Shown here: piece by piece, positions 2,011 through 25,708 of the stretch
Numbering within the stretch: position 1 is the first letter of the stretch
How the letters are laid out: every line of letters starts with the position of its first letter
Source of the DNA: Owenia fusiformis
Lineage: Eukaryota
Assembly (NCBI GenBank): GCA_903813345.2
Contig: CAIIXF020000001.1
Coordinates: 2,108,001 to 2,172,000 of the forward strand
DNA: 64,000 nt
Reading direction: 5' to 3'
Notes under the pieces: generated by a model
Told to the model about the DNA's origin: nothing
Databases searched by the model: none
What the model saw: the letters and a program-made list of their open reading frames with translations, nothing else
Made by a program: the position numbers and the translations under genes

Positions 2011-5000
2011 TCACATGTTATCATCATTGTCAGTGTCATCATCACTGTCTGCCACTTGAAGTTTGGTCTTCAACCGTTTGGCACCATCATCATCTGGTCT
2101 TCTACAAGCATTAAATATCAAATGCAGTAACAACATGAACAATGATGTCTGCTATTTATCAAAACATGTTTTTTCAGCTGGATTTGTTACTCCTGGTGTT
2201 GCTGTGTTCGATACAAATAAAAATACGTCCAGTAAAAGAAAATACATATTTTATATCAGCCCAGAACAAGAATCTACTTGCAACTATTCATGTTATCAAT
2301 TTACTAGGGGTCATTGTTAAGGAAACATACTTACACAAAAGTCTGAGGAGCCTTTTTTCTTCCAAGTTGTTGTTTTGTTTTTGTAAATGATGGTCGCCAT
2401 TGTCTTTGGTTCCTTTGATTAGGGGCAATTTTCTGTGTTTTTATCAAAGGATCTACCTGCAAATAATGATTCATAATAAAATGGTTATTGTATACAATAT
2501 GTCTACTGCTATGTTCATATGTCACATTTTGGTTCACTTTTTTCTTACAATTGTTTCATCCTTTATAATATAACTGAATTAATTGTTGGTCTTGTGATAA
2601 AAATTACTTGTAAACTTCATGGTTGGATAATCTTACCTCATGAACTCTATCATTAACATCATTAGCACACATTGACATGATCCCCGTTATACGGGCTTTC
2701 GCCATTGACAATAAGTGAATCGGCATTTCATCCACTATTTGTTGGAGTTTTAACAAATCTTCTTTGAGAGCTTTCCTGAGAATTTTACCTATAATGAGAT
2801 GTGAAACTATTTAAGCCCTGGATTCAATGCATAATGTGTGCATAATCATTCATCTTGAAGGTGTTTTCAAAACTGTGTGACCATGCAGCCAAAATGCAAA
2901 GTTTAGGAAACAATGGCAGAGTGGAATGAATAAGCCATAGTGCATCAAGTCTTGAGTGTCTTTTGCAGTATTTTCGGACAACAAAAATGCAGTAGTTTTA
3001 TAGTAGATTTTGAAAAAAAATGGTAGTTTTTGGCAGATTTTTAAAAAAATGGTACTTTTTCAGAAGTTTTTGAAAAATGTGGTAGTTTTGGGTAGATTTT
3101 GAAAAATCTGGTAGTTTTGTGGTCGATTTTTGAAATTTAGTTTTGCGTAAGATTTTGTAAAATGCAGTAGTATGTAACTGCTCAGTTGTTTCTAGATTTT
3201 CAATTTTGTCTAAATTGTATAAATGAGAGTTTTGCACCGATTTGAGAAAAATTCTGAAGAGATCACTGCACACTGGTAGCATTAACGAGGCGTATAGCCT
3301 TTTTTTGTGAAGCCACTCAGTTAAATTATGATTTCTCTGGAACCTGATGTCCAATTAAGATCATTCAAGTATCTATGTGTACCTGACACGTTTGGGCGTC
3401 CAGGAATAACAACTTCTACCCCAAAGTTTCCTAGCGAAATTGACGTAATTCTTGACTTAAATCAGGAAGACAAAATTTGAGATTCACAAACAAAACTGCT
3501 TGGGTAGACATTGTCATTACCGGATGCCCAAACGTGTCAGGAACTCATAGATACTCGAATGATGTTGATTTAACATCAGGGTGCAGAGAAATCGTAATTT
3601 TACTGAGTAGCTTCACAAAAAAATAAGCAGCACTTTAGCCCACCTTAACATTTGTCTCATATATGTCATACAATTAATATTTGAAATGCAACTTTTATTA
3701 TGTCCCCACCACATAGTGTGGGGCCATATTGTCGGCCTAGGCGCGTCCGTCCGTCCATCCGTCCGTCTGTCTGTCTGTCTGTCTGTCTGCGATATAACTT
3801 TTGTGTATATATTCTTCAATATTTTTCTGAAAATCAGATTTGATTTTTCTAAATTTGATCATCACCTTTTTCATTTTGCAGATCCATTTTTGGAGTGAAT
3901 GTGTCTGGGGAATCTTCTGTACTGACGTGCCTGGGCTTGAGGAGCCGAAACACCTTGTGAATATGCTTACAAAGTTTTTCTTGGTTTGGACATGAGCATG
4001 TCATTATATGGTGACAGAGGCCCGGACAATCCTCACATCTAACACAGGGTTTGACACAATTGCCTGAGATGTGCGTTACTTTGTACAGGTTCTTTCCTTT
4101 CACCTCCCAGCTTGATCCATCGAGTGCCTGGAATACATTTTTTGTGTTTTATTGGATAAAAGAATAAAGGTTTGTATCTACTCTCGTACTGATACAACAT
4201 GTAGAAAATTAGTTTAACAAAAAACAGGTAAATAAATTGTATTTGAGTACATGTTATTTATAACTATCAATCTACATTCTAGTAGTTGCCAAGGGACACA
4301 GCAGCCATCACATGGCAACTCCTCCATGACCTTGACCCACAAACCTTGAGAATGACCTTGACCTTTGTAATGACAGACTGATAGATTAAAATTAGACGGT
4401 TGACTTTTAGGACTCACTTTCACATTTTCATCTGCAATTGCCATTCCCTTAATGTGTGAACTTTGGACGATCCGAACATTTTTCTTCCCATATAGCTGGT
4501 TTCTGACATCCTGAAACCAGAATGTGAATATTTACACTGTTCCACAGTTGGATTACTCAACTGCAATTAGCTTCATTCAAGATGATTGCCAAAAATCTTT
4601 CGTTTTCGATAAATCTTCAATTTCAACTAAACTATACTATACTCAAATTGAAGGAATTTCAGAGTAGATCACAACTATGGCATTGTTTTTCTGATTTCCT
4701 CCTCTGAAAATTCAAAATGTCTGACTAGAGCAGAAATTCGCCATTACTTAGAGTTATCTTAAAAGTTTGGTTACATGATAATACAATGATTTTAAATATT
4801 TATTGAAGGTAAGAGTAGATGGTAAATATTACATTGTGACTGTACAGATTGATGATTTATATAGTGTTTGTTGGGATTTGCTACTCTGTGGAGTTGCCAT
4901 TTTCTAGTTTAATAATCACACTTGCTATGTAGACATTTGAATAGTCAATTGTAAATCTCCATTCAGTTAAAGTCATCAATGGTGATTATCATGTTAGCAT

Positions 5001-8000
5001 CATCATCAACTTCAGTTAGAGTCATTCTAAGTGAAATCGTTTTCTTTAAAAATCTCCAATATCGCGGGTGTTTGAGCCACCATCTTTGGTTCTTTACAAT
5101 CTGAGCTTTATCATGTATTTGTATGGCAAAACTTTTGGGATCCAGATTCAGCTTGGTTTAGCTATATTCAGAGGTTTATCGAAAACGAAAGAATTTCGAC
5201 AACCACCTTGAATGAAGCTAACTGCAGTTAGAGTCATCCAGCTGTGGAACAGTGATTTAAGAAATTACAAAGTGTGTTGTTATTGTTATTTCAGTTGACA
5301 TCTTATTGACTCCAAACTGGAAAGGCAGATGGAAGATTCTGAGATTTCAAGTTCATTTTAACATGCGTATGTGTCCTATTAACTTTTAAAATGTTTTTAA
5401 ATAAAGTCAAAGTACCCAGTAACCGTTCTGATAGACTTCTGAAATTATGAAACACCTTAGTACCCATAGTACTATTGTTATTAGTCCAGTTTTGATTTTT
5501 TTATCTCACCTGTAGATATCGATCTTTTTCATATCTTAGTAGAACATTAAGAAGGTGGTCTACCCTTCTATTAAACTTCTTGTTTAGATAAAATGACTTT
5601 AGTATGTTGTGAAAGCTGTAAAATAAAGTATTGAAAGATATCAAGCAATGTATGATCTAACCAATGGATTCAAAAATTAATTTAGTAAACTCAATCATTC
5701 CATTAGTTAACTTTATTGTTTGCATGCTAGTATTGTTTACTTGGTCCTTACCTCTCAACATACATGTTGGTATCAGTGTTACCATGATCAAAATTGCGAT
5801 AAGCCATTGCCCACTCATCTACAATATATGATTGTATTTTAAATATAGATAGAACTGTAGAATAGTAATTTGTAAAGTTTTATGCCAGTACAATGGTCAT
5901 ACTTATAAATTTTGGCTGGTTACTTAGGATGAGAATAAATATTATGGTATTTGTTACCCCCTGGAATAGCATTATCAATTTTAGACAATAATTTGATTAC
6001 CTTTCCTCTTTAGGTAATGGGCCTTGAAGTAATCTACAAACTTCCTTTGTCTTGGAGAAAAATACGTTAGAAACCCTTGAGTTAGCTGTTGAAACTTCTC
6101 CACCGATTTTGCATCCATTATAAGCATAAGGCTTTGGTATATTTCAACTTGGTCAGTAGGATTTTTTACAAGTAAGTTGATGTGCCTCTTCCATGCTCTA
6201 CATATTTGCAAATATATTAATCAATAACACAAATAATAAATCAATTATTGTATAAGTGGTATTTAATCCAAGTGGTTAATATGCCGAATGGTTGACTAAT
6301 GTCATTTTCCAAATTCTAATTTTCTTATGACAAGAAACTTCCTATTGGATAACACGATGAAGATAATATTTCCGACATTTCATTTTGAGAACCTCGCAAG
6401 AATTAGGCAATAGGCAAATCAAATGATTAAGTAAAATTACCACTTGTACAGTATTGTCACACGATTGAAGCTCATAGGGATATAGAGATTAAAGTCATCC
6501 ATTTGTCTGTCCATCCTTTCAGACATGAATAGTTTATTCTGTGGGATTTGCTATCCTGTAGAGTTTTCTAGTTATGAATATTATTGTAAAGTTTCACTCG
6601 ATAATTTGTGATTTAGTTATATTTACCTGTTAATGTGCCATTTACAGAGAAGGTGCTTCACAGAAGGGCCATAAACTGCTTTAACAGCATTCCATCCAGC
6701 ATTGTCTGTTAAAATATGAGTTTGTTACAACTACATGCTCTAGTATATAAGCTTAATATCGAAGCACAATATCAAGCTTAATATCAAAGCACAATCATTT
6801 ACTTTAGTCTAAAAAAAACTAAAATAGATCTACGCATGGATCCAATCAAGTTGTATACATGTCCGTCCATCCAGTCAATTAAGGGTCAAATTATACATTA
6901 TATTTTGATTTAGAGAAGAACAATAATTTTTTGCAGAAAGTCCATCATACCATCATCAGTCATTACACACTTTAATTTGACATCTGGGTTCCTGTCCTGA
7001 AGAGAATGCAGAAATGCTTGGATCGTTTTCTGGTCCTCACTGTCAGCAAGCAGGAATGCTACTGGATATCCTGGAAAACAGGTATAACAATTTTATAAGT
7101 GTTATTATCATACTTATATTTTAGGTATGATATTGTTCACACATTGTGCCTAATGTTATTTTCATGTTCAAAATATAAGATATCTATTACCAATGGTCGA
7201 AAGGTTATAACATTGATGCATGAGAGTGATATTTTATATCATTTGTAAGTGTTGTACAGGGGAATGTCTTCAATGTGGGCTCAATAGATTATTTAATATT
7301 ATGGTAATTATGGAAGAAATAGATGCTTTTTAGTGAGGAGTATCAAACATCAGTAAGAAATCTGGAAATTACCTTTTCCAAATTTGTCTTGAACAACTAA
7401 AGTTATGAGTTTGAATCTGTATTCGTTCGTGTTGTGGGTGCTGTCTATACAAAGAATCTTCTCTGCATATTCTTTGAAAACAAGAGATTGTTGTTCAGTC
7501 TGTACACCCAAAATGAAGCTGGACTCATTAAAGTGGAGATCAGAAAATGTCATTGGTTTTCCTTGGGGTTTAAATAATAGGACAGGATTAAATTTCTCTT
7601 GTTCCAATTCAGAAACTAAAATACATGTTGACTGATGATCATCGGGATGTCTCCTCTCTTGATTAATAACGCAATCCTTGAGACTGTTAATGTTCTTCTT
7701 TGTAATTAAGTGTTCTTGTCTGATTTGTTGAGTACCACTTCTCTCTTCTCTATTTCCGACGTCATTCTGTATGTCTGAAAAAATATTTGTTTCGAAAATA
7801 TGTTTCTTTCACGACATTTATTCAGGGCAAGAAAATGTTGGTCAACAAATATGGCGAATTTAAAAACTGAGATATAAAAAACACAGACATGAAGTAACAC
7901 CTGCAAATCTGGCATAAAATTTGGACCAGCCAATAGGCTTTTGATTGATAGGTATATTTAAACCTGCACATCGCTCTAAAACTCAATATGGCAAATGCAT

Positions 8001-11000
8001 GTATTACTGTATTACTTGTACTTAGCTTAAAGCACATTCATTTAGTTCAAAAAACTGAAATAGATCTATGCATGGATCCGACCAGGGCCGTTCTTGTCAT
8101 AATTATCATGAGTTATTGTACAGGGGATTTGCTCCATTTGTTCACCATTGGATAATCTTTCTTTAAAGCTCAAAATCTTAAAGTTGACTCCGGAACAACC
8201 CAGGATTGCTTTCTCGAGCGATGTGTAGGTTTAATGTACTCTCTCATATTGCTTTTACCTTCTAAAATCCTATCAGCTTCTACACCTTCCACCAGCTTTT
8301 TCTTAATAATATTACGAATGTCTTGAGGTATTGGGTGATATTGGGCATCGGAGATGTTGATTTCATGGCTATGGGTTTTAATGAATTTCACAGTTACAGT
8401 GTTATCATTATTGCTTTCCCTAACACTCATACTAGATAGACAGTTGATATTTAATCTGCAGGACCCTTTATTTCTTCTCTTGTTCGTTTTATGCTTAGCT
8501 TCTCCATTTTTCCTATGAGGTCCAGTTGCAAGACCATCTCGATTGCATCTGTAGTATGTGAATATAGCTGAAATTAACATTTAGAAGTATACTCCATCAT
8601 ATCATTGACACTTCTGATATAGCATACATATGTCTGGCATGTATAGTCTACAATGATCTCATAATATCATACCTCAATTTTCTGTATGGGAACCTCAAGG
8701 TTTCATTCCTAAAAGTTCTGTATGAGAACCTCAAGGTATCATACCTCAATGATCTGTATAACATCATGGTATCATACCGCAATGTTCTGTATGAGAACCT
8801 CATGGTATCATGCCTCAATGTTCTGTTTGAGAACCTCATGGTATCATACCTCAATGTTCTCTATGATAACATCATGCTATCATACCTCAATTTTCTCTAT
8901 GATAACCTCATGGTATCATACCTCCATGTTCTCTATGATTGCCTCATGGTATCACATGTCAGTGTTCTCTATGATAACCTAGTGGTATCATACCTCAATG
9001 TTCTGTATGAGAACCTCATGGTATCATACCTCCATGTTTTTGATGATAACTTCATGGTATCATACCTCAATGTTCTGTATGATAACCTCATGGTATCATA
9101 CCTCAAAGTTCTGTTTGAGAACCTCATGGTATCATACCACAATGTTCTGTTTGAGAACCTCATGGTATCATACCTCAATGTTCTGTATGAGAACCTCATG
9201 GTATCATACCGCAATGTTCTCTATGATTGCCTCATGGTATCACATGTCAGTGTTCTCTATGATAACCTTGTGGTATCATACCTCAATGTTCTGTATGATA
9301 ACCTCATGGTATCATACCTCAAAGTTCTGTATGAGAACCTCATGGCATCATACCTCAATGTTCTGTTTGAGAACCTCATGGTATCATACCTTAGTGTTCT
9401 CTATGAGAACCTCATGGTATCATACCTCAATGTTCTGTATGAGAACCTCATGGTATCATACCTCCATGTTTTTGATGATAACTTCATGGTATCATACCTC
9501 AATGTTCTGTATGATAACCTCATGGTATCATACCTCAAAGTTCTGTTTGAGAACCTCATGGTATCATACCACAATGTTCTGTTTGAGAACCTCATGGTAT
9601 CATACCTCAATGTTCTGTATGAGAACCTCATGGTATCATACCGCAATGTTCTCTATGATAACCTCATGGTATCATACCTGAAAGTTCTGTTTGAGAACCT
9701 CATGGTATCATACCTCAATGTTCTGTTTGAGAACCTCATGGTATCATACCTCAATGTTCTGTATGATAACCTCATGGTATCATACCTCAATGTTCTGTTT
9801 GAGAACCTCATGGTATCATACCTCAAAGTTCTGTTTGAGAACCTCATGGTATCATACCTCAATGTTCTGTTTGAGAACCTCATGGTATCATACCTCAATG
9901 TTCTGTATGAGAACCTCATGGTATCATACCTCAAAGTTCTCTATGATAACCTCATGGTATCATACCTCAATTTTCTCTATGATAACCTCATGGTATCATA
10001 CCTCAATGTTCTCTATGATAACCTCATGGTATCATACCTCAATGTTCTGTATGAGAACCTCATGGTACCATACCTCCATGTTCTCTATGATTGCCTCATG
10101 GTATCACATGTCAGTGTTCTCTATGATAACCTTGTGGTATCATACCTCAATGTTCTGTATGATAACCTCATGGTATCATACCTCAAAGTTCTGTTTGAGA
10201 ACCTCATGGTATCATACCTCAATGTTCTGTTTGAGAACCTCATGGTATCATACCTCCATGTTTTTGATGATAACTTCATGGTATCATACCTCAATGTTCT
10301 GTATGATAACCTCATGGTATCATACCTCAAAGTTCTGTTTGAGAACCTCATGGTATCATACCTCAATGTTCTGTTTGAGAACCTCATGGTATCATACCTC
10401 AATGTTCTGTATGAGAACCTCATGGTATCATACCTCAAAGTTCTCTATGATAACCTCATGGTATCATACCTCAATTTTCTCTATGATAACCTCATGGTAT
10501 CATACCTCAATGTTCTCTATGATAACCTCATGGTATCATACCTCAATGTTCTGTATGAGAACCTCATGGTACCATACCTCCATGTTCTCTATGATTGCCT
10601 CATGGTATCACATGCCAGTGTTCTCTATGATAACCTTGTGGTATCATACCTCAATGTTCTGTATGATAACCTCATGGTATCATACCTCAAAGTTCTGTTT
10701 GAGAACCTCATGGTATCATACCTCAATGTTCTGTTTGAGAACCTCATGGTATCATACCTCCATGTTTTTGATGATAACTTCATGGTATCATACCTCAATG
10801 TTCTGTATGATAACCTCATGGTATCATACCTCAAAGTTCTGTTTGAGAACCTCATGGTATCATACCTCAATGTTCTGTTTGAGAACCTCATGGTATCATA
10901 CCTCAATGTTCTGTATGAGAACCTCATGGTATCATACCTCCATGTTCTCTATGATTGCCTCATGGTATCACATGTCAGTGTTCTCTATGATAACCTTGTG

Positions 11001-13338
11001 GTATCATACCTCAATGTTCTGTATGATAACCTCATGGTATCATACCTCAAAGTTCTGTATGAGAACCTCATGGCATCATACCTCAATGTTCTGTTTGAGA
11101 ACCTCATGGTATCATACCTTAGTGTTCTCTATGAGAACCTCATGGTATCATACCTCAATGTTCTGTATGATAACCTCATGGTATCATACCTCCATGTTCC
11201 CTTTGAGAACTTCATGGTACCATACCTCAATGTTCTCTATGATAAACATATGGGATCATACCTCAATTTTCTGTATAATATCCACAATTTTGGGATCATT
11301 ATGTTTTATTATCAACTACTCAGTAATGAAAATAGTGCAAATGAATGAACATATTTTATTCTATACCAGTCTTTCGTTTCTTGGGCTTGCTTTCCTGCCT
11401 AAAAAATGTGAAGGTCTCTCTCTCAACACTCTTCTTCCATTTCAGGAATTCTTGCATGTTGCCGAATGCTACATTCTCGATCTCTAAAAACATGAAATAT
11501 TGAGATTGATTAATTATTGTGTTTACAAGTGGAAACTGCACATCTGTTACTGTTACTGGTGTATTATGAAAACAATTTATGTAGTGTATAAGATTAATTA
11601 ACCTTTGCTTACCTATTGGCCTTTCATGGACACTTTGTAAATGTTCTGCCATTTTAGTTCTTTTTGAAGTTTGGAAGGAACATCCCACAACACTGCATTT
11701 CCTTTCCAGGACTTTGGTTCTAGCTTGATTCGGTGTCACTTTCGTCTTTGGGGCTGTTGGGGTTATTATTTTGTTTCTTGACAAATCATTGAGTTTTATG
11801 AGGCGTTGTGACTTCCAAGTGTTCTCTTGTTTTCTGGAAAAAATAAGTATTTTTACATAGTTTTAGTACAAAATGGGTAGTTCAAAGGGATAATAGAGAG
11901 TCTGCATGTATACTTCTATGATACTCATAATAAATATATTTCATAATATGGATTGCAGATATTCTGTTGTTATTTTTTTAGATTTGCACATCTTAGAATC
12001 CAATCTTAGAATCCATTGATGATAGTTCTATTTAAATGAAGGAATTTATTGTGTTCATTGTGATTCACCTCTCCTCTGAAGGCATAAATTTTAAGTAACA
12101 TATTAAATCATACCTCTCTTTCCTTCCATAAACATGATCTCCAGTTCTTTGTTGGCTGAGAATATCAGTTGGGGGGGTGTCCAACACAGCCTCCCAATGG
12201 CCATAAGGGTGCCAGGCAAGGTGGACTGCCTGATTCGGGGTCTGGCCCTCCCATACGTGCTGGACAGTAACAGGACTCTGTTGGACAAGAGACACTTGAA
12301 TCTCTATGTTGAGAGCACCAGCAATGGCAATAACACTCTCTTGTCCCGCCCATTCATTCGTTTTTGCCACATTACGTGCTAGCTCCTCTATATTTTCATT
12401 ATACAATGAAAATTGTTCGGGGTTATGAATAATGAATTGTGCGGCCAGTTGTCTTAGATCATTGTGATGTCCTTGGCTGCCATACAAACACATTGAAAGG
12501 GCTCGAAAAAGGCAGTTGCCATCTCCCATCGTTGGATGTCTATAGAGCATGTAAGGCGAAAGGTACTGATCAACGATCTACAAAAAAAGATTAAATTAAA
12601 ATATGTTATTTGTTTGGGATTGAATATGGGATTAGATAGTTTAATAATTATACAAAGGTCCAATAGAATATATTCAGACTGTTTAGACTGACTTCAATAT
12701 TTTTCAGAAGTTTCAAATCTGACTTTATATTTAAGATTTGATCTTCAATGACCTCTTCAAGGTCAAAAAAGGTAAAAAAGGTATATTTCAACTTGATTGA
12801 AATTGACCATTTTTTCAAAAATCATCTACAAGCTATCAGAAGTTCGAATCTGACTAGGTGGTGACATTTTGTCATGTAGATGCCTTATCTGCATATGTAA
12901 CTTACAGTCTTAAAAATTTGAAACAATTTGCATGAAAGTTTGTTCTTGCTTAGAAATCAATATAACAAACCTGTTCAATTTCAGAATAGGGCAGTTCAGA
13001 ATCTGGGAGTTGCTCAGGAAACACTTCTTCAAAAACAGCACTCGAGAGGTCGATTCCCTCAAGAACATCATTCTGCAAAATATTTTTCTTTGGTAAGTGT
13101 TTATAGTGGTTTTGTGTGAGTATAAAATTTTAATAAAGTGTATGGTGACTCAAGCACATCATTCTGCAAATATTTATCATTGGTAAATGTTTATATCGGG
13201 CCTTGTGTGAGTATAACATGTTAATTAAGTGTATGGTGACTCTCCAAAGTAAATAGTTCTACTAACCTGGAGATATGCCGGTGGTTGAACACCAAGGAGG
13301 ACATCATTTCCTACATTGTCGATATCGAAGTGATGTAA
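2011..13338 (-). CDS. OTU-domain / C2H2 / WRKY-GCM-like / MULE (Mutator) DDE transposase / SWIM fusion protein, 16 spliced exons (N-terminus supplied by an upstream exon)
   Basis: Hand-spliced exons, all GT-AG and phase-compatible, no internal stop: 13338-13267, 12577-12114, 11833-11613, 11483-11367, 8567-8259, 7774-7373, 7070-6951, 6705-6627, 6197-6001, 5818-5752, 5615-5510, 4510-4418, 4127-3866, 2788-2637, 2456-2335, 2101-2011 (TGA). Motifs: OTU GDGNCLFRA...HWEAV; C2H2 CSVVGC...HLQSVH; YYRCNRDG...NC...HSH; MULE CIDSTH (D), VMTDD (D), CKWH (CxxH), TNMYVESFH (E); SWIM CSC...LCKHI; acidic tail. Confidence 0.9.
2985..3172. repeat. Degenerate ~30-40 bp tandem repeat (AAAATGGTAGTTTT/GTAGATTTT)
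   Basis: Repeated motif; a related longer array at ~21330-21670. Confidence 0.55.
3297..3628. mobile_element. Foldback MITE
   Basis: ~125-bp imperfect inverted arms (TTTTTTGTGAAGCCACTCAG...CCTGACACGTTTGGGC vs GCCCAAACGTGTCAGG...CTGAGTAGCTTCACAAAAAA). Confidence 0.7.
3693..3815 (+). mobile_element. Helentron/DINE-like non-autonomous element 5' fragment
   Basis: T-run, short hairpin (CCCCACCAC..GTGTGGGG), then (CCGT)n/(CTGT)n microsatellite. Confidence 0.55.
4535..5254. mobile_element. Transib-like non-autonomous element
   Basis: ~100-bp TIRs starting CACTGTTCCACAG / ending CTGTGGAACAGTG; 5-bp TSD ATTTA (4530-4534, 5255-5259). Confidence 0.75.
8650..11280. repeat. 36-bp minisatellite, ~73 copies, intronic
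   Basis: Unit GAGAACCTCATGGTATCATACCTCAATGTTCTGTAT; lies wholly inside intron 8568-11366 of the transposase gene. Confidence 0.97.
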
Positions 13339-13389
13339 CTAAAAAGAAAAATGAATATTTCAATGAAAATGTAACAGTTTGTATATACA

Positions 13390-15273
13390 TATATATAAAT
13401 GCCTTGCATCTAACTTAGGGGACCCATAATCATATTTCAGGACTATGAAGCAAACCCACCAGGACCCATATTTAAAATATAAGGCTTACATCTTACTCAG
13501 GGGACCCATAATCATATACAGACTTTGTAGCATAAGCTCCAGGACCCATATTTCAGATATATACCTCGCTTCTAACTCAGGGGACACATGATTATATTTC
13601 AGGACTTTGTAGCATAACCTCTAGGACCCATATTTAGGATATATGCCTCGCATCTAACTCAGGGGACCCATAATCATATTTTAGGAGTATGTAGCAAAAC
13701 CTCCAGGACCCATATTTAGGATATATGGCTTACATTTTACTCAAAGGACCTATTACTATATTTGAGGACTCAGTTGCAAACCCACCAGGACCCATATTTA
13801 AGATATATGCCTTACATCTTACCCAAAGGACCCATAATCATATTTTAGGACTATATGATAAAACCTCCAGGACCCATATTTAGGATATATGGCTTACATC
13901 TTACTCAAAGGACCCATAATCATATTTTAGGACTATGAAGCAAAACCATCAGGACCCATATTTCAGATATATGCCTCACATCTAACTCAAAGGACCCATA
14001 ATCATGTTTTAGGACTTTGTAGCAAAACCAGCAGGACCCATATTTCAGATATATGCCTTACATCTAACTCAGGGGACCCATAATTATATTTTAGGACTAT
14101 GTAGCAAAACCATCAGGACCCATATTTCAGATATAGGGCTTACATCTTACTCAAAGGACCCATAATCATGTTTTAGGACTTTGTAGCAAAACCACCAGGA
14201 CCCATATTTCAGATATACGCTTCGCATCTAACTCAGGGGACCCAAAATCATTTTAGGACTTTGTAGTTAAACCTCCAGGACCCATATTTCAGATATATGC
14301 CTCACATCTAACTCAGGGGACCCATAATCATGTTTTAGGACTTAATAGCATAACTTCCAGGACCCATATTTCAGATATATGCCTTACATCTAACTCAGGG
14401 GACCCATAATTATATTTTAGGACTATGTAGCAAAACCATCAGGATATATGGCTTACATCTTACTCAAAGGACCCATAATCATATTTTAGGACTATATGGT
14501 AAAACCTCCAGGACCCATATTTCAGATATATGCCTCACATCTAACTCAGGGGACCCATAATCATGTTTTAGGACTTTGTAGCAAAACCTCCAGGACCCAT
14601 ATTTCAGATATATGCCTCACATATAACTCAGGGGACCCATAATCATGTTTTAGGACTTTATAGCATAACTTCCAGGACCCATATTTCAGATATATGCCTT
14701 ACATCTAACTATGTAGGACTATGTAGCAAAACCATCAGGATATATGGCTTACATCTTACCCAAAGGACCCATAATCATATTTTAGGACTATATGGTAAAA
14801 CCTCCAGGACCCATATTTCAGATATATGCCTCACATCTAACTCAGGGCACCCATACTCATATTTTAGGACTATGTAGCAAAACCAGCAGGACCCATATTT
14901 AGGATATATAGCTTACATCTTACTCAGGGGCCCATAATTATATTTTAGGACTATATGGTAAAACCTCCAGGAACCATATTTCAGATATATGCCTTGCATC
15001 TTACTAAGGGGACCCATAATCATATTTTAGGACTGTGTAGCAAAACCAGCAGGACCCATATTTAAGATATGTGGTTACATCAGGAGTCCCATAATCATAT
15101 TTTAGGACTTTGTGGCAAAGCTAGGACTATAGCCTACAGTCAAAACCTTAGGATTCATATTTAAGATATTACATCTAACCTGGGGGATTCATAGCCATAT
15201 TTTAGGACTGGAGTAAAACCTTCAGAACCCATTTTAAATTACATGACTGGCATCTAACCAAGGGGATCCATAA
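13390..15273. repeat. 82-bp tandem array (dimer of ~41-bp subunits), ~23 copies
   Basis: GGACCCATA recurs at 13952, 13992, 14034 etc. (40+42 spacing); copies degrade at both edges. Confidence 0.95.
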
Positions 15274-15517
15274 TTAAGGAATAAAGTCCCAAGATTTTAT
15301 GATTCATGGCGTAATATATGACCGAAAATTTAATTCTGTCCATTGTCAAGAGATCGAAATCACAGAGCGATTGTTTCAATTACAAATATTTTTGGCTCAT
15401 GTCATTCCTTGTCATGTCTATTTTCTAAAAATCACAAAAGTACATACTTTATTCAAGGAAAACGAAAGATTTTTACAATAATGTATTATTTTTCTATAAA
15501 AATGGTTACTAGGCCTA

Positions 15518-16764
15518 TAGGGCGTTTCATTTTTTGGAATGTTTTTTCTGATCAAGTTGCTATTCATACATTATGATCTATGGTTAGTAGGGACCGCACA
15601 AAAAAAATTTCAGCCAAATCGGACATCGTTTGCCTCACCCCCTCAAGCCATCTTTATTTGACACATTTAGCATGAATACATTAGATTCAATTATGAAACA
15701 TGTACTAAATTGAAAACGGACATATAAAATAGGTGGAGTCCTATATTCTAGTAATAAATGTATTACAATGTCAAGTGACATTTGAAGATGTTTTGATTGC
15801 ATTGATTTGCTTTCTATTGATACATGTTTCTAACTTTATGCTGCAAAAAGATAAAATTGATGATGCCCACTTTCTTATATTTTTCCAGGGGTAGGGCACT
15901 ATAAAGTCATTATAATTAGTTGTATTAAAATATCAGAAATAGCATGGAAATGATTTTAGAATCCTTTTTTGAACCGTACAAGCTGTCATCATTTGCTTGA
16001 AGCTACAAATATAAAAAAGATGAGACCATAAAAAGATGTGCAGTGGATCAAATTGACACAAAAAGTTTGATATCTCTGCATTCAGTTGTCATAAAATGAT
16101 GTATAATGGCTCTTTAGAAAGGCCTTCTTACGTATTTTATGTAAGAAGCCATAATACAACATTTTATGACAACTGAATCCAGATATATCAAAGTGTTTGT
16201 GTTAATTCTGATCCGTGACACACTTTTTTAGTCTCATCTATTTTATATTTGTAGCTTCAAGCAAAAGATGACAGCTTTTACAGCTCAAACAAGTAATCTA
16301 AAGTCATCTCGTTGCTATTTGTGATATTTTAATGCAACTATTATAAGGACTAAGTACTATTTCATATTTTTAATAATAATTTATAGTGCCCTACCCCTGG
16401 AAAAATATGAGAAAGTCAGCGTCATCAATTTTATCTTTTTGCAGCATAAAGTTAGAAACGTGTATCAATAGAAAGCAAATCAATGCAATCAAAACATCTT
16501 CAAATGTCACTTGACATTGTAATACATTTATTACTAGAATATAGGACTCAACCTATTTTATATGTCCGTTTTCAATTTAGTACATGTATCATAATTGAAT
16601 CTAATGTAATCATGCTAAATGTGTCAAATAAAGATGGCTTGAGGGGGTGAGGCAAACGATGTCCGATTTGGCTGAAAATTTTTTTGGGCGGCCCCTTCTA
16701 ACCATAGATCATAATGTATGAATAGCAACTTGATCAGAAAAAATTCCAAAAATGAAACACCCTA
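15518..16764. mobile_element. 1.25-kb foldback (near-perfect palindrome)
   Basis: TAGGGCGTTTCAT...ATGAAACACCCTA; ~600-bp arms meeting near 16110-16150 with almost no spacer. Confidence 0.9.
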
Positions 16765-17249
16765 ATGGTCAGATGGTTACCATTCTTATTATTTGGGAGA
16801 ATTTAAACATTTTTCACCCATTCTTGCACTTTGAATCATTAATAACTTAACCAATTTTTAACATATTGTTAATCTTTTGGGAGATATTGTATTTGATATT
16901 GTAAGCAATAGATTGGTAGGTCAATTATGCACATTGCTTGTAATTTTGTCACCCCCTATAGACATTCTGCCTTTAAGAAGTAAAAGTGGTCATACATACT
17001 CCAATATAGACCAGTAAATCAATTGTTCTAGCTATTGTGACGTCATGTATCATATTAAAATCATATTTATTTCATCACATGTTTGGGCAATGTCTATATT
17101 TGTGCCTTAGACACTCCTGTTGTATTGAATTGTTTTTATTTTTTCAGATCATTGTCAGGTCCATTTGAACATATGGAGAAAGGGAGATGAATAAGAGAAT
17201 TATAATAAGGGGAATGCTATGCAGTGAAGATGTCATTAAAGTCACTTAG

Positions 17250-17620
17250 AAGATCCATGTGCAGTATGGCAAGTGATTTTAGATGGTCATATCTTTCACC
17301 ATGAGTACTTCCTGGGCATAAATACAGTGGTTTTTATTAAAACAATATATTTTTCTTTCAATTTAACTATACCACATTTCAATACACATCCCCTTTTCAG
17401 AAGTTGTTAATATAGAGCAGAAGATACTTTTGGTATATATAAATTGAGAAAAACAAGATTCTCGTTTTAGAAAAAAAGCCTTACATTTTTGAAAAAGTGA
17501 CAAGGTGGAGTCCTAATCCATAGTTTTTCAGAGAGTTGGATTGCTATTTTACTATCATGGGGTACTTATGGTGAAAGATATGACTGTCTAAAATCACTTG
17601 CCATACTGCACATGGACCTT
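17250..17620. mobile_element. MITE with ~60-bp TIRs
   Basis: TCCATGTGCAGTATGGCAAGTGATTTTAGA...CATATCTTTCACCAT and its reverse complement at 17560-17617. Confidence 0.7.
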
Positions 17621-20315
17621 TTACAATGTTAGTCCTGCAACATACAAAATAAATCCAGACGTTCACTTTTGAGGGTTGTGAAGACTGAAAAGCAGGATGA
17701 GTGCTACACTATGTTCTGGGATAACTCCTTCAGGACTGCAGATGTTCAGTGCAAAAACTTTGACAAAAATATTGAAATGATGCTGTTGAATCTTATTATA
17801 TTATCCCATCGAACAAGGTTTGAGAGCGATGTAGAATGGCCACCATAAACTACCAGTTGCCAGATTTGGTTCATATTTTGTATGGTGATGCCTCACAACA
17901 TGATAGTAATTCGAACATGACTGTTTTCACGCCTTCTATAAACTGTAAACAAAGTCAACATTTCACCCGGGGCATATCGTGAAGAATTCCCCTTGTAATA
18001 CATGTAATGTGTGACGTCATAACGGTGGATCGTTGTAATGGCGGTCCATAATCATGAATATTCAAAACATTTTGGTGAGTTTTCATGTTCAAATCGTAAT
18101 ATAGACCTAAGGGGTAATATCGTCGACTACACCACTTAGGGCTGGGCAAAAAAGCTTTCGAACCCCTCACTCCCTTCCACTCGGTCGTTCGGGATACAGA
18201 AAACGTTTGTGCCTAGCCCTGCGGGGTGTATTACCCCTGCTCTGAGGTCTTTATTTCTTTATTCTCACTTATTTAACAATTTAGTAGAGCACCATGTAAC
18301 TTTAATGACTCAAATATCTTTATATTAATAAATTCATGAATAGGAAAGAAAAATCGGCTTTTTAAAGCCTTAACTTATGCTATGAAGCAAAATTTGATAT
18401 TTGAGTATGTATTACCACTAAAATTCATAAATGCAAATAGTTGTGTTTCTTGTCTCTGTTTATTATCATATAAGAATCGTAACAAAGACCTCAATTTTAT
18501 GATTTATAGGAAATATATGACCTCAAATTTTATTCTGTCCATTGCCAAATACCTCAATCGCTCTGTGACTTTGGTCTCTTGACAATGAACAGAATAAAAT
18601 TTTCGGTCATATATTACGCCATGAATCATAAAATCTTGGCCTCTATTCCTTAAGTATTTTTGTTATTTCTTAAAATGACAACCCTGTAGATGATATATTG
18701 GAATATGGCCCACAGTTGTGAAGAAATTCAATTTGGACATCTTCAAAATGGCTGCAATGTTACATGAAAAAAAATTAAATGTGATCTTTGATAACTTAAA
18801 TACTCCTTCAGTCCTTACATGCCTTAGACTTTTAGATGAGTGTTTTTATAAAATTATGTTTGATCAGATTTTTATGTCACCATCAGACTATCAAAATTAT
18901 TAATAGTCTCCACCTTTTTATGGATAGTGTTTTGCGGTTGGTGTTTGGTGGTCAGTGTCTGTAACAAATAGAGTGTGGTGACATTTTGCATGTTACTGTT
19001 ACATTTCAGGTTAGTTAAACCACAAATAAGATGTGAACTGGTTTAAATAATAGGGAATAACATCATATGCTGTGAGAGGTCTTAGATATGGGGTGTATTC
19101 TTAGTGAGATCTAGATATTTTACTATGGGCCGAGATACAATATATTCAAAACTGAGCATCACATAACTAATTTATCCTAAGACAAGCAAGGTTTCACAAG
19201 TGAAGTTTTCATATCCAGAGTGTCCTACAGTTCTACAAAGTGTTCTCATTCGCGTTATTTTCGAGAAATCCATCAACATTTTGGTCAAGAAAAAATCTAG
19301 TGTCTGTTGCATCCATTTTGACAGTTATGCTAATTGCAGGATATTCTTACAAATTGGCTTGGCCTTTTTCTACATTGAACAAAATATTTTCCCAGGAATA
19401 CTTTGGGGTGAGTTACACAGCAGCAGATATAGCGGAAGATAATAGATATACCCCAGTATATGTTGCACTCCTCCAAGATATCAATTCTTTATCCTGATGT
19501 TATGTGTCTGCTGAAACCTCACTTGTCATAGAATAAGATGATGTATCTTCTTGTAACAACAAATAAGTAAATAATAATTCACAGTTTATTTTATTATACT
19601 GAATCACTAAAATAAATTACATTTATGTCACAAAAAATAATGCTTGTATCTTTATTTATTCCATCAAAAGACTTTCAGCGATATGGCATTACAAAGCTAT
19701 TAAAGGCATTTTTATGTTTTTAAAACAATTTCAGTGTTTGTTATTGTAAGTTTCCATTTACTAGTATTAAACATAGTCTCTTGGAAAATGTAGCATGGTA
19801 CCAATGGTCTAGAAGGTGATTTGTATTTGAGTCATATCTTCTCTTTTACTTCTATATGAGCATAATTTTAGATTTTCTGAAATATTAATTTTGCCTAGCT
19901 TGTATAATTTTCTCTCAGAAAGCAATCAGTGATCAAATGTACCTCTACTTTAATATTACATTTTTATTTCATTTTCAAATTATTGATTATGGGTAATGAT
20001 TGAAGTATTCATGGATAACAGTGTTTATAAGGAGTTTTGCAACTTATTGATACTTCTAGGTAGGTACGTAGGTAGGTAGGTACACAATGTAGGTATAGGT
20101 AGAAGTATATGGAGTATACATATACTATTCCCAAGCTGTCGTCAATCCTACACAACTAGGACATCCTGTCATTGGGAAAACACGAGAAGTCAACTGAAAG
20201 AACAAGAAATAAACAAACAAATAGAAATTAAATCAAAATAATTGAATCTTCAAAGCTATATAACAAGGGAGCTATCATTTTCATTTTTTAGACAAGACTA
20301 GATGACTAGGCTTAT

Positions 20316-22419
20316 TTATCCTACACTTAGTGTACTAAATGTATAATAACATGAAAAAATAAATTTGATATTTATTGGCAAAATGAACATCCGGAGGATA
20401 TCGTTACGATATACTCCGGGCGGAGGATATCGTGACGATATACTCCGGAAAACCCAATATGCGGAGGATATTGTGACGATATACTCCGCTTGTTGATTTC
20501 CCGCCAAATTGACTCTATTAGGCATGAAATTAATTTTACAATGATATCATACATTCAGTACACACCTTGTAAGCCCAAGTAAAAAGACATGGCAATTCTC
20601 ATGTAATAATTGGTTAACTTTGGTCTAATAATTATGCATTTTGATAAAAGTTAACCTATTTGTTAAATGAGCATTAAATCAATGAAAGTTGAATGCCAAT
20701 AAATAGCTATTTATTACACCTATTTATTATTCTAACAACTATGTTATAATGCTCTTTGAATAATTGGGTAACTTTTCGTCATCCTTGCTACCCTAGGTGA
20801 TAAAAATTAGCTAATTGTTAAGATTGGACTTATAAGAAATGTGGCAGTGAGTATTAGCAAAATATTAACTTTCCCGCTCTTTTTAAACCAAAAGAAAAAT
20901 GGCTGACAAAGAATGTTCAACTGTAAAAGATTTGGGTAATTTTATGATTTTATAACAATAGTATGAAAATGACTAATCAAATATAGATTCAGAAGTTACT
21001 GACATACTTGAACATTCTGCATGTCTACTTTGTGAGAGGTAAAATGTAAGTATTGCTGTTTTATTCCAGTTTAGATGGGCAAATCTTCTTTTCTTTGTGA
21101 ATTTATACAGTCAAACTGGTCAAGCATAAATGTGTTATGTATGACCAATTGTACCATGCAGTAAAAATTATAAGGTATTTTATAAAGATTATGAAGATAA
21201 ATACTGCTGGAGGCCTAGCCTAGAGGGTCCTTCAATAACTATGAGCCTTCTGGCCTTCAGGACAATTCTGAATGGGTAAAATTATCAGTGATGTCCCATA
21301 ATAATTGCTTATATCATCTTACATACCCAGGGCCAACCTAAAATGAAAAATTTGCGTGAGATTTCCAAAAATTGTGGTACTTTTACAGGAGATTTTTCCA
21401 AAATCTGGTAGTTTTAAAAAAATTGGTAGTTTTCGCCGTAGATTTTTAAAAATCAGGAGTTTTTTAGGTGAATTTTGAAACAACTGGAGTTTTTACGGTA
21501 GATTTGAAATAAAACGGTACTTTTTTAAAAAAGCGGATTATCTCCAGTTTTTTTCTAATAAAAGCAATTGTTTTTGCGGTAAATTCTGCAAAAAGTGGTA
21601 CTTTTGTGGGAGATTTTTGACAAAATCTGTATAGTTTTTGCAAGAAATTTTGAAAAACTTTGGACTTTGCCATGAATTAATTTATACGCTTTGCATGGCC
21701 AGATTTGAATATTCACGCAAATTACATATACGTCACACATTTACTTCGAATTTGTGTGTCCCTACCCACCTAATTTAAATATTATTTAATGTTTTTGGTT
21801 CTTATAGTAGAAAATAAATTTTGTAGACCATAATGCATCTTGGGTAAGAGTAATGCAACAAATAGGTTTTAAATAGCTAATAAATAGGTAATACTCTGTT
21901 AATTCTTAGCTAACGAATACCTAAAAAATTTATCATGCAAATTAGAGAATATTACCACAATAAATATGTACAATATTTAGGTAATATTCTGTTAACATAT
22001 AGCTTATTATTGGAAGATAATCAATACATGATTATTAGATTTCTAATTTTACCTAATTATTACAATGTAATTTTCATTTAATAATCAGTCAATATTCTAC
22101 ATGAGCGTTGAATGTTAACAATACCTTATTATTAACACCTATTTATTAACGTAATTCTCTCTAATTTGCATGATAAATTTTTCAGGTATTTGTTAGCTAA
22201 GAATTAATAGAGTATTACCTATTTATTGTCAATATTTTCCCATTGACTTTTTTCACTTGGGAGTGTAGGATAATAAGAACATTCTATGATTTTTTTCAGA
22301 ATATCATTCTACTCGGTGATATTGATATATGCACTCGTTCGCTTCGCTCTCTCGTGCAGATATCAATATCACCTCGTAGATAAAAATGATATTCCTCAAA
22401 ATCATAGGATATCCTATAA
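20316..22419 (+). mobile_element. Inverted-repeat plus terminal-hairpin element, copy A (Crypton- or Helentron-like architecture; class unassigned)
   Basis: Left end TTATCCTACACT, inverted partner AGTGTAGGATAA at ~22262, followed by a ~140-bp hairpin ending CCTATAA; reverse-oriented relative at 40799-42235. Confidence 0.7.
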
Positions 22420-22919
22420 ATATCTACTCTAAGCTTATTAAAGATTCCATATTTCCATAGAGATAAAGAGCGACCCCCCCCCACAAAATTATTCTAAAAT
22501 CATGCAGTTTTTTCACAATTCTGAGCACCTTTCCATTGATTTGGACATTTTGGGGTCTAAATTGTCAAAAGTGTACCCCTCTGGAATTTTTCCAAAAGTG
22601 AACTTGCCAAATCATTGATATGGGCTGGGTCTCACCTTATCCTAGTCTATCCAATTGACCACACTTGTCCAGTTTTAAATGGAAATGATAGACCTAATGA
22701 TAGCTATAAAATCTTAATATAATCAAATGCAAGCAACAGATTTGGTAACATCATCTACTGATCTAGGGCTAATAGATCTAGTGCTAATAGATCTAGTCTA
22801 TAGCCATAGGCCTGGGGATCCAGCTAGGCATACATGTAACTTAGGCCTAAGCTTAGATTAGTGTGATGTTTACCAATTCAATTGCACAACATACGTGGCA
22901 TAACAACTTTTATTCTCAC

Positions 22920-23000
22920 CGTATCTAATACATGAGGGTAAATCTGCCCCGTAGCGGCCTCGAGAAGACATAATGTGAATAATATTTTAATGTCAAACAT
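22920..23000 (-). CDS. Candidate first coding exon (MFDIKILFTLCLLEAATGQIYPHVLDT), signal-peptide-like; probably exon 1 of the OTU-MULE gene
   Basis: ATG in AAAAATG context, 81 nt, ends at a GTGAG donor in phase 0, matching the phase-0 acceptor at 13338. Promoter-like DNA lies immediately upstream. Joining across a 9.6-kb intron is inferred. Confidence 0.6.
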
Positions 23001-23019
23001 TTTTTAGTATTTTAAACAT

Positions 23020-23310
23020 TCGCGGGAAAAATTGGCTTCCCTAGCAACTGACATGGAAACGTGGAATTTCCTTAATTAAATCTCCGATTCGTCAGGTTTC
23101 AACATATCTTTAAATTAATGGAATTGGAGGATGTATAATTTGATAGAATAAACAATTATTCTTGGTTAGAAAAACGATTTTAACGAGAAAAATAACGAAA
23201 TCCTAAGGGAATCCCTCGGAAATTCCTAAACTCCCAGCAGGCATAGCGATTGACCGGGATTCCCCAAGAATTACGTCATCGCTAGCGTTTTGGTTTTGAG
23301 ACTACAGAAA
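23020..23310. promoter_or_regulatory. Putative promoter with clustered NF-kB/Rel-like sites
   Basis: GGAATTTCC 23063-23071, GGGAATCCC 23207-23215, GGAAATTCC 23218-23226, GGGATTCCCC 23256-23265; TTACGTCA (CRE/ATF-like) 23271-23278; GCGGGAAA (E2F-like) 23022-23029; CCTAGCAAC (RFX half-site) ~23040; locally CpG-enriched. Confidence 0.55.
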
Positions 23311-23334
23311 TTGTCCCTCCCCTTTGCAAAATTG

Positions 23335-24968
23335 AAAAAGATTTTGCTACATTTATAAGCGAGCATTGATTTCTGGGCCTGTAAAAAGCACGTAGGACCT
23401 GATTACCCCATTGATTTACTGAGACCGCCAAAAATTTAATTCAATTTTTTGGTTCAAAATAATAATCTGTCAGCGGTCCCTGACACTCCTACTAGCTATC
23501 ACCAAACATTAATTGCCAATACATGTACACATATACGTGCCATACATCTACAAAGTAGCGAACTAGTGTATTAAGTACTACTTTTCCTATACGATGAGCA
23601 AAACAAATCTCAAGTAGGTTATATTGACCCTATTAGTGTCATGGTTGACTGAATATGCATTTTATTCAATATGAATTTAAAAGTTCGGGGTTTTATGAAG
23701 TGATATGTACATTTTTGCTCAAATCCCCTCAGCACTTTTGATTCTATAGGGTTCTCTTGACCCCTGGGGTCATTATATTTTGTGACAATTTATTCCAGAC
23801 TAAATGTAGTTATTTTGTCATTAAAATATCTTATTAGAGAAACGTTCAGGAAAAGTTGCGCTATCCACAAGACTTCTTGTCACTGCACTGATAAATGTAG
23901 CAAAATAGTCAAAATAATTCAGCCATGAGCATGAAATTTTTGAATTTTTGGACAAATTTTGGGCTATTTTGGGGGATTTTTGCCCATAACGATACTAATC
24001 TACTTAAAACAGCTGTTTAAAGTTGTACAAATTGCTTAAGTGATTTATATTCTCTCATAAGTAGGACTATTTGCTACTTTACTAAACTGAACATCATTGA
24101 TTTTTCGTTTTTCATGAACTTCTGATGGCTAGTTCAAGTAGCATTGTCTTTTGTGCAGGTTTACTGAATACGTCCCTTTAAAATTGGGTCTTTTGTGGGT
24201 TTAAAGGGTCAAAATGTTGGAACTTTGCACACTGTGGAACGTTTGGGGTGTGTTTCCTTTAATTTGGCAAGAACTGCATCAAATTACTTGATAAGAGAGC
24301 AGAAATGTAGCAATTTAGGCTGAAAAGTACTGTTTTCAATGAAAAAACGAAAATTGCTGACTCAGCAAAATTTAGATCGTCGTCTCCAGAATTTTAGGGG
24401 TTAATTTGCAAAACTTTAAATGGTCCCATAGAAACATATGCGAAATATGGCTAAATTCGACATATTTCTCGAAATTCACTGATAAATGTGGTTGATATTA
24501 GGTAGAAAGCAACTTACTTTTTCACCCATTGGAATACATGTAAAATTGGCAAAGTTCAAATCATAATTTCTCAAATCCCAGCCCATCGAATCCTCACATC
24601 CATTCAGATCATGTAGTCCTATTCAAAAACTTCCCGTTCGGTTATATGGTGAAAAAAATATCCCACGAACGAAAAAAGATTTTGCTACATTTATAAGCGA
24701 GCATTGATTTCTGGGCCTGTAAAAAGCACGTAGGACCTGATTACCCCATTGATTTACTGAGACCGCCAAAAATTTAATTCAATTTTTTGGTTCAAAATAA
24801 TAATCTGTCAGCGGTCCCTGACACTCCTACTAGCTATCACCAAACATTAATTGCCAATACATGTACACATATACGTGCCATACATCTACAAAGTAGCGAA
24901 CTAGTGTATTAAGTACTACTTTTCCTATACGATGAGCAAAACAAATCTCAAGTAGGTTATATTGACCC
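23335..24968. repeat. Two identical 296-bp direct repeats (23335-23630, 24673-24968) around a 1042-bp non-coding insert
   Basis: No mismatch seen on reading both copies; offset 1338. Confidence 0.9.
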
Positions 24969-25708
24969 ACAGCAGATTTTTTTAAAGAACAACATCTAAC
25001 AAGTTCAGAACAAACATATAAGGGGGTGCATATTTAAAAATACATTTGATGTGTAGGGCTAAGCTTAATTCAACAGAAAAATCAAATATCAAGAAAAGCA
25101 TAAATTGCCCATGTAGGTAGGCCTAATGGAATGTCAATGTATATAGGCAGATGTTTACTCGAGTCTCTAGGCTATAGCTTAGACGAGAGGAGATAGAAGC
25201 ATTCTCGGCCAAGGGGCATTCACGGACAAACCCTTGGTATCAGGTGAAAATCTGGGGCATTGTTAGACTTTTTACAATATGCAGCACCACATAGATAATA
25301 TGTGTCTAATATGAAGTTTCAATAAAGAAACCATATAAAACAAAGGATTATTGAAGATCGTCCGACAATGCCCCGTGTCTGAGATTACCGCTGTGTCCTC
25401 GAGAAGTCTTTGGACCTAAGTAAGCAGATCTAATCAGTAATTTCCAGTTTAGAACCTCAGTGCAGCAATTTGTTTGACAATTACCGATACACGGACAGCA
25501 TTGTCTGGATCCCTGTACCGTACTATAACTGCCACTAATGTATAGCCTGAATGTCAAATAATTTCTTCTTGATGTTCTGATTGTTCTCATATGTGTCGAT
25601 TCTGTAGAGCTACTATTTTCAATATTAACATAACATGTCATCTAGGCTAAGGCTAAAGATTTCATGAGCTCCTTTCATTACTTGTTCTTATCATATTGCT
25701 AAATACTA

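Follow-up and report, generated by a model that had tools for sequence, protein, structure and literature searches.

Can a transposase carry a deubiquitinase as part of one continuous protein, and if it does, is its gene a transposon or a gene that the host has kept? A locus of Owenia fusiformis raises this question. It lies in a window of 64,000 nucleotides (assembly GCA_903813345.2, contig CAIIXF020000001.1, positions 2,108,001 to 2,172,000 of the forward strand; all positions below are those of the window), in which an earlier note, made from the letters alone, had described an intact, intron-rich Mutator transposase with an N-terminal OTU protease domain. Our comparison with relatives indicates that the fusion is genuine, an OTU domain being joined in frame to a transposase of the apparent arrangement C2H2-WRKY-MULE-SWIM (MULE, Mutator-like element). 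The window gene appears to be a divergent (~32% identity) and unusually intron-rich member of an OTU-MULE family. On balance, we lean towards reading it as a gene for a full-length MULE transposase from the animal clade to which ZSWIM1/3 are related, equipped with an OTUD1-like OTU domain at its N terminus; it would most likely belong to an old, low-copy or immobilised element and not to a recently active one.

A gene model was built independently of the earlier one. GT or GC donors and AG acceptors were enumerated between neighbouring homologous blocks, with only in-frame joins allowed, and the splice pairs were ranked by consensus; the pair kept was the one that continued the tblastn-guided alignment to relatives. 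On the minus strand, from 12577 to 2011, 14 exons splice into one open frame of 2931 nt, corresponding to 976 codons with a single terminal stop (Table 1). All 13 introns are of the GT-AG type, the 26 splice dinucleotides are all intact and there are no internal stops or frameshifts. Conserved motifs are rebuilt across the junctions (GK/G/YPVAF, MTDD/D/NAGW, WHIN/R/AW and YVE/S/FHN, a slash marking each exon boundary). Because the junctions fall within these motifs and restore them, the splice sites are unlikely to have arisen by chance. The sequence context is AT-rich (GC 0.31-0.40), with a eukaryotic gene structure.

This model bears out the location given in the earlier note, with the gene on the minus strand, as well as its junction between the OTU exon and the C2H2 exon (12114/11833), which is in phase and has good sites (GAG/GTATGA ... 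TTTTTTCCAG/A). An alternative donor at 12069 is also in phase, scores about equally and would add 15 linker residues. Sixteen exons and 984 residues had been proposed; we count 14 exons, with the OTU exon as the first and the stop in the last, or 15 with a candidate exon upstream (13338-13267), and obtain 976 residues, or 1000 with that exon. The description of the gene as intact holds for the body of the protein, with every codon open, and not for its start, as no start codon was found.

The OTU exon matches the Pfam profile PF02338 with an E value of 5.5e-12 and 46.7 bits (cut-off 23.3), and the Cys and His boxes reported earlier, GDGNCLFRA and GHWE, can be read in the family alignment. In a phmmer search against the Protein Data Bank (PDB), the best solved relative was the OTU domain of human OTUD1 (4bop, E 4.5e-15), with an alignment extending from the N-terminal helix through the OTUD1 motif GHYDAV, here GHWEAV. 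An AlphaFold2 model of the domain, based on 47 aligned sequences, reached a mean predicted local distance difference test (pLDDT) score of 92.1. With this predicted fold, Foldseek again returned 4bop as the top match (E 3.1e-13, template modelling (TM) score 0.78, root-mean-square deviation 2.0). At E <= 0.001 there were 102 matches in the PDB; those listed are all OTU domains, with OTUD3, OTUD5, viral and yeast proteins following OTUD1. The 47 aligned OTUs all share D19, G20 and C22, and almost all share H127; the residue after the catalytic His is Trp in the window protein and Tyr in at least 90% of them. OTUD1 is therefore the best match in both sequence and fold, with both boxes aligned, but the two domains are only about 29% identical, the third residue of the triad, Asp in OTUD1, is Glu in the window protein, and the flanking regions of OTUD1 are absent from the window protein. 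The OTU claim has thus passed both profile and structure tests: sequence and model together indicate that the domain is real, and we predict it to be an OTU cysteine deubiquitinase of MEROPS family C85.

Relatives of this domain were reached by exhaustive searching. Word-index searches among longer proteins with the OTU exon and with the first MULE exon gave no match, whereas an exhaustive HMMER search and a search seeded with the relative P0028 did find relatives. The former, started from the OTU exon, returned 1684 proteins at E <= 0.001 (best 1.6e-21), the best relative being 52% identical over 95 residues. The best-scoring OTU relatives, P0001 (577 aa) and P0002 (608 aa), each have two tandem OTU domains and lack a transposase domain.

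Behind the OTU domain, the spliced protein contains, in this order, one C2H2 finger, a putative WRKY-GCM1/FAR1-type DNA-binding domain, the MULE core, a SWIM-type motif and a conserved basic tail. The D-D-(CxxH)-E core recognised in the earlier note is complete in the alignment: both Asp motifs (CIDSTH and MTDDD), CKWH and the Glu motif (YVESFHN) align with invariant family columns, and all are retained. The profile PF21056 (ZSWIM1-3_RNaseH-like) matches exon 7373-7774 with E 1.2e-9 and 38.7 bits (cut-off 27.2). PF10551 reaches E 0.011 at best on single exons, a weak score that we attribute to the splitting of the MULE domain over four exons. The FAR1 profile PF03101 falls under its cut-off of 28.1 on exon 8259-8567 (E 1e-4, 23.4 bits); this exon shows the Cys/His pattern and is colinear with relatives. 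For the C2H2 and SWIM exons, Pfam gave no match at E <= 0.05, and both domains are called from motif and alignment. The SWIM finger proposed earlier accordingly stands as a motif, CSC...CKH in near-invariant family columns, and not as a profile match. A second C2H2 finger, present in relatives, is degenerate in the window protein.

Evidence for the fusion comes from other proteins. Residues 3-957 of the spliced protein align with a 1117-aa protein of the oyster Saccostrea cucullata (XP_062604065.1, here P0165) at 32% identity (E 3.7e-145). Pfam scans identified OTU together with MULE in eight proteins (P0005, P0028, P0163, P0164, P0165, P0166, P0170 and P0213), Saccostrea included. Two of them, P0005 (597 aa) and P0028 (1026 aa), were found among the long proteins matched by the OTU exon. 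The search seeded with P0028 added 12 further proteins, five of which combine PF02338, PF10551 and PF21056 in their precomputed Pfam annotation (P0163, P0164, P0165, P0166 and P0170); the other seven have the MULE core only (five), Ulp1 with MULE (one) or Ulp1 alone (one). In the proteins that pair Ulp1 with MULE, namely P0218 from the jellyfish Sanderia malayensis, P0220 and P0173, Ulp1 is C-terminal. Outside the eight stands P0015 (606 aa), for which Pfam calls OTU only and in which C2H2- and FAR1-like stretches can be seen after the OTU domain by eye and by tblastn. Judged from these sequences, an entire protein family in oysters and other assemblies has the fusion, and its sisters carry a C-terminal Ulp1 or no protease.

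Named members of the family are the Saccostrea cucullata protein and XP_061184345.1 of Saccostrea echinata (P0170), both labelled 'uncharacterized protein' at NCBI. The 90% cluster of P0213, which includes an OTU-bearing member of 1008 aa, contains five named oyster entries: three Crassostrea gigas LOC entries, one from Magallana gigas and one from Crassostrea angulata. Three separate Crassostrea gigas entries and others in one cluster fit a multi-copy mobile family, and relatives occur in clusters whose 34-60 members are nearly identical. Of the 60 invariant family columns, 53 are conserved in the window protein, as are 50 of the 61 near-invariant ones; three of the lost near-invariant residues are Cys/His residues of the second C2H2 finger. 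Its OTU domain is most similar to the fused OTUs of the family, with 40% identity to that of P0005. A scan of metagenome contigs with the family alignment gave 18 loci, none of them a family member: 14 were at 24-25% identity over about 140-270 residues, the others were short (27-45%), and at least some came from plant or bioreactor metagenomes. When P0165 was compared with the ESM Atlas, the large clusters closest to it consisted of arthropod MULE/ZSWIM1-3 proteins for which no OTU is given, which we take as a lead only.

RNA neither shows nor refutes the OTU-to-C2H2 junction. Three raw RNA-seq runs with the same species label were compared in part (1.66-1.92 thousand million letters each, about 6-12% of each run) with 11290-13390. 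The sole reads in this interval fall on an interspersed repeat at 12640-13135; the OTU exon and the next exon received 0 reads. The repeat reads are 95-99% alike, have loose ends and are strongly biased by strand, most first mates being on the minus strand, and the imperfect likeness and loose ends indicate that they come from other copies; the repeat is transcribed somewhere in the genome. No indexed RNA source is listed for 11356-12577. Contigs of run X1 cover 11420-11874 and 12102-12587; they extend beyond both exons into intron sequence, as genomic DNA would. Word depth in this run is 6.7-10 on the two exons, 6 on the unique flank and hundreds to thousands on the intronic repeat.

How, then, should the gene be read? 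A gene-model artefact would mean that the OTU exon comes from a separate neighbouring gene and is in phase with the transposase exons only in appearance. No RNA read joins the two, and the existence of two in-phase donors (12114 and 12069) shows how little agreement in phase proves by itself. This reading is opposed by the eight relatives, which have OTU and MULE in the same order in one continuous protein; for this reason the fusion is unlikely to be an accident of the gene model, and the earlier claim of an in-frame fusion gains support. The closeness of the window OTU to the fused OTUs points the same way, and the exon could not form a gene by itself, since it starts at an acceptor of its own and its frame does not stay free of stops beyond it. 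We regard an artefact as very improbable. A decaying or 5'-truncated copy, with start and promoter lost, no protein made and the frame still open through recent origin and luck, is a somewhat better candidate, though still an unlikely one. No in-frame ATG was found upstream of codon 10 of the OTU exon. The candidate exon 13338-13267 has no in-frame ATG, no homology support and no reads in the three RNA-seq runs, and the sole ATG-led reading of its DNA (ATG-ATG) is out of phase with the OTU frame. A search for an ATG-led first exon up to 22000 gave only 9 weak ATG-plus-donor candidates, and none at a stricter threshold. In addition, only about 60 bp separate the candidate exon from an 82-bp satellite on its upstream side, the tested exons drew no RNA-seq reads and one of the two family C2H2 fingers is degenerate. 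Decay is hard to reconcile with 2931 nt in 14 exons without a stop or frameshift and with every splice dinucleotide intact. Moreover, codon 10, seven codons ahead of the GDGNC box, is the earliest ATG in the OTU exon whichever frame is read; preceded by an exon of 5' untranslated region, it would yield a 967-aa protein still containing the Cys box.

The transposon reading draws its support from the intact Asp-Asp-Glu (DDE) and CxxH core, from relatives at several loci in one oyster genome and from the clusters of near-identical members. Several observations at the locus itself weigh against it. No terminal inverted repeats were found by a repeat search of 1-22000 or by blastn of 1-2300 against 12500-24000, the left flank in the window being only 2 kb long; the sole flank-to-flank match is 37 nt at 81%, and no target-site duplication could be defined. 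By tblastn, no second copy of the gene was found within the window. The missing upstream ATG counts here as well. Word depth on the exons is close to that of the unique flank, which is a hint of a single copy, although depth is no measure of copy number. At least 13 introns with nested repeats of their own beside an unbroken frame would fit a long-resident, selected gene equally well. A tree of 17 rows places the window protein at the end of a long branch (1.69 substitutions per site), joined weakly (81/69) to the Ulp1-bearing group and outside a 100/99 clade with the seven other OTU-bearing rows. The tree program flags possible long-branch attraction for it; given this placement outside the OTU clade, a single origin of the OTU fusion is not established. 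Much of this would suit a domesticated host gene, a former OTU-MULE transposase that was immobilised and kept by selection, bringing a deubiquitinase to DNA sites through its C2H2 and WRKY modules. FHY3/FAR1, MUSTANG and ZSWIM1/3 are genes derived from MULEs, and the Pfam model that fits the core best, ZSWIM1-3 RNase H-like, is built on domesticated genes. The flanks searched lack inverted repeats, run X1 depth on the exons is like that of unique sequence, and the 2931-nt frame is unbroken despite introns holding a 2.6-kb minisatellite and MITE-like palindromes (MITE, miniature inverted-repeat transposable element). The retention of 53 of 60 invariant residues at only about 32% identity and the long separate branch are in keeping with it too. 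On the other side, the catalytic D, D, E and CxxH are all retained, as expected of a working transposase, no exon reads appeared in the three runs, and the relatives look multi-copy in Magallana/Crassostrea. We therefore hold domestication to be a serious but clearly less probable explanation. Its specific form, a sequence-specific DNA-binding protein delivering an OTUD1-like deubiquitinase, perhaps together with a still-active DDE nuclease, to defined chromatin sites, is more tentative again; if true, it would be the first MULE domestication to retain a ubiquitin protease as a working part.

If the gene is, as we favour, that of an old or immobilised transposon, the parts of its protein suggest how they might cooperate. 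The zinc-finger and WRKY modules would bind the element ends, and the DDE core would cut and paste the element DNA. The OTU domain may deubiquitinate the transposase that carries it, or else chromatin or proteins of the DNA-damage response at the break, and such deubiquitination could stabilise the transposase or mute the host response. Since closely related MULE cores are found with OTU at the N terminus in some proteins and with Ulp1 at the C terminus in others, we propose that the shared activity, removal of a ubiquitin-like modifier, is what matters.

The earlier note had not recognised the arrangement. It is present in oyster proteins at NCBI: P0165, P0170 and the P0213 cluster share, as read from the alignment, the domain order OTU, C2H2, WRKY/FAR1, MULE core, SWIM and basic tail, with end-to-end alignment for P0165. 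They differ from the window protein in sequence (about 32-34% identity), in having two C2H2 fingers against one working-looking finger here, and in the long branch of its own on which the window protein lies. The vertebrate MULE-derived ZSWIM1 and ZSWIM3 supply the best Pfam model for the core and share the apparent layout of FAR1-type domain, RNase H-like core and SWIM. To our knowledge, ZSWIM1/3 have no OTU domain. An OTU-MULE combination has also been recorded in print. Table 1 of Dupeyron et al. 2019 (Mob DNA 10:12; PMC6446971) gives the Hydra element MuDR-6_HM (Repbase) with 'Ovarian Tumour Gene', beside a Crassostrea group; compared by that table entry only, it is likewise an animal Mutator element with an OTU feature, in one open reading frame (ORF) and with no terminal inverted repeats noted there. 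Passages of Babu et al. 2006 (PMC1702500) describe Medicago MULE transposases with an OTU-superfamily protease fused at the C terminus, mention two classical zinc fingers before the WRKY-GCM1 domain of animal MULE transposases, and suggest self-processing for protease-bearing MULE proteins. The OTU-MULE fusion is thus of a recorded kind, with public, uncharacterised relatives, and is not a one-off invention. In the full-text literature, searched outside subscription journals, Repbase Reports and supplements, we found no description of an animal transposase with an N-terminal OTU followed by C2H2, WRKY, MULE and SWIM.

Comparable passengers occur in other elements. Ulp1-carrying MULEs (plant KI-MULEs; the hydra and lancelet Mutator elements mentioned in PMC2836005; P0218, P0220 and P0173) belong to the same transposase clade and also carry a passenger cysteine protease, which in their case is Ulp1 (Peptidase_C48) at the C terminus, whereas the window gene has OTU at the N terminus. 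The relevant passages of Bao et al. 2010 and of Arkhipova and Yushenova 2019 report Ginger1 and Helentrons with OTU, and Mutator elements with Ulp1 (PMC2836005, PMC6431247). In Ginger1 and the animal Helentron proteins, as here, OTU is fused to a transposition protein and a link to the ubiquitin pathway has been proposed, Bao et al. suggesting that OTU and Ulp1 of Ginger1 take part in the repair response (PMC2836005, PMC6431247). The enzymes to which it is fused are, as those passages describe them, unrelated (a Gypsy-type integrase and a Rep/helicase), and the Ginger1 OTU is C-terminal (PMC2836005, PMC6431247).

Table 1 Features of the OTU-MULE locus. Exon boundaries come from splice enumeration with tblastn; a slash marks a splice boundary.
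Feature	Position	Strand	Basis or remark
Candidate upstream exon (uncertain)	13267..13338	-	72 nt, phase 0 to 0; acceptor ttttcttttt ag/, donor CAG/gttagt; in phase with OTU exon
5' end of OTU exon	12577	-	Strong acceptor tttttttgtag/ATC
OTU exon	12114..12577	-	Cys box GDGNCLFRA (Cys codon 22), His box GHWE (His codon 127)
Linker, C2H2 finger (CSVVGCSFQ...HLQSVH), degenerate second finger, start of WRKY-GCM1/FAR1-type domain	11367..11833	-	Family alignment
Rest of WRKY-GCM1/FAR1-type domain (YRCNRDG...KGSCRLNINC...KFIKTHSHE)	8259..8567	-	Colinear with relatives
Start of MULE/RNase H-like core, first catalytic Asp (LCIDSTH)	7373..7774	-	PF21056; tblastn of P0005, E 3e-24
MULE core (GYPVAFLLAD...VMTDD); second catalytic Asp cluster spans into next exon	6951..7070	-	Alignment
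MULE core with DNAGW and CxxH motif (LCKWH)	6627..6705	-	Alignment
Helical insertion region of MULE core	6001..6197	-	Alignment
Catalytic Glu exon (TDTNMYVE/S/FHN)	5752..5818	-	Alignment
Conserved helix after Glu (NRRVDHLLNVLL)	5510..5615	-	Alignment
Linker exon ahead of SWIM motif	4418..4510	-	Alignment
SWIM-type zinc motif (CVRCEDCPGLCHHIMTCSC...LCKHIHKV)	3866..4127	-	Cys/His columns kept in family alignment
C-terminal helical region	2637..2788	-	Alignment
Conserved basic tail motif (Q..P.F..T....GRKK)	2335..2456	-	Matches family pattern Q-PRF-T-GRKK
Last exon, acidic tail, stop codon 2013-2011	2011..2101	-	Gene model
Minisatellite	8658..11276		Tandem Repeats Finder; 36-bp unit x 72.8 copies, 88% matches
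High-copy interspersed repeat	12640..13135		Word depth, run X1; in intron upstream of OTU exon if candidate exon is real
MITE-like inverted repeat in intron, 122-nt arms, 85%	3300-3623		Repeat search
MITE-like inverted repeat in intron, 74-nt arms, 81%	4559-5229		Repeat search
82-bp satellite array directly upstream of gene	13395-15111	+	Higher-order periods 164 and 246 bp

The minisatellite was all that a search for direct repeats over the entire window returned. It takes up most of the 2.8-kb intron within the WRKY/FAR1 DNA-binding domain; its plus strand is stop-free in two frames (926 and 601 codons) and so mimics a long ORF. The 82-bp satellite was considered as a source of Foldback-like termini, which were rejected as it lies on one strand only, with 17 of 17 motif matches on the plus strand. 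Further upstream (15289-16743 and 18555-18639) lies a large nested palindrome, with 364-nt arms at 97% (15542-15905 and 16380-16743) enclosing further inverted pairs; an 85-nt inverted pair at 94% spans 15289-18639, and the region resembles a foldback or MITE-like element. Two stop-free stretches on the plus strand, 25703-26383 (226 codons) and 28202-28615 (137 codons), contain hydrophobic segments and have no Pfam match at E <= 0.05; they may be exons of a neighbouring membrane-protein gene.

Cysteine proteases of the ubiquitin and SUMO systems have been captured repeatedly by unrelated transposons, Ulp1 by MULEs and Ginger1, and OTU by Ginger1 and Helentrons. We know of no transposon-borne OTU or Ulp1 protease for which a function has been shown. 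That closely related MULE transposases bear an OTUD1-like domain at one end or a Ulp1 domain at the other amounts to a natural swap experiment, which suggests that the element needs the removal of a ubiquitin-like modifier, whichever one that may be. A copy with all catalytic motifs intact offers a concrete protein with which to probe the role of a transposon-borne deubiquitinase. Should the gene instead prove to be domesticated, the locus would link DNA-targeted deubiquitination to a transposase scaffold.

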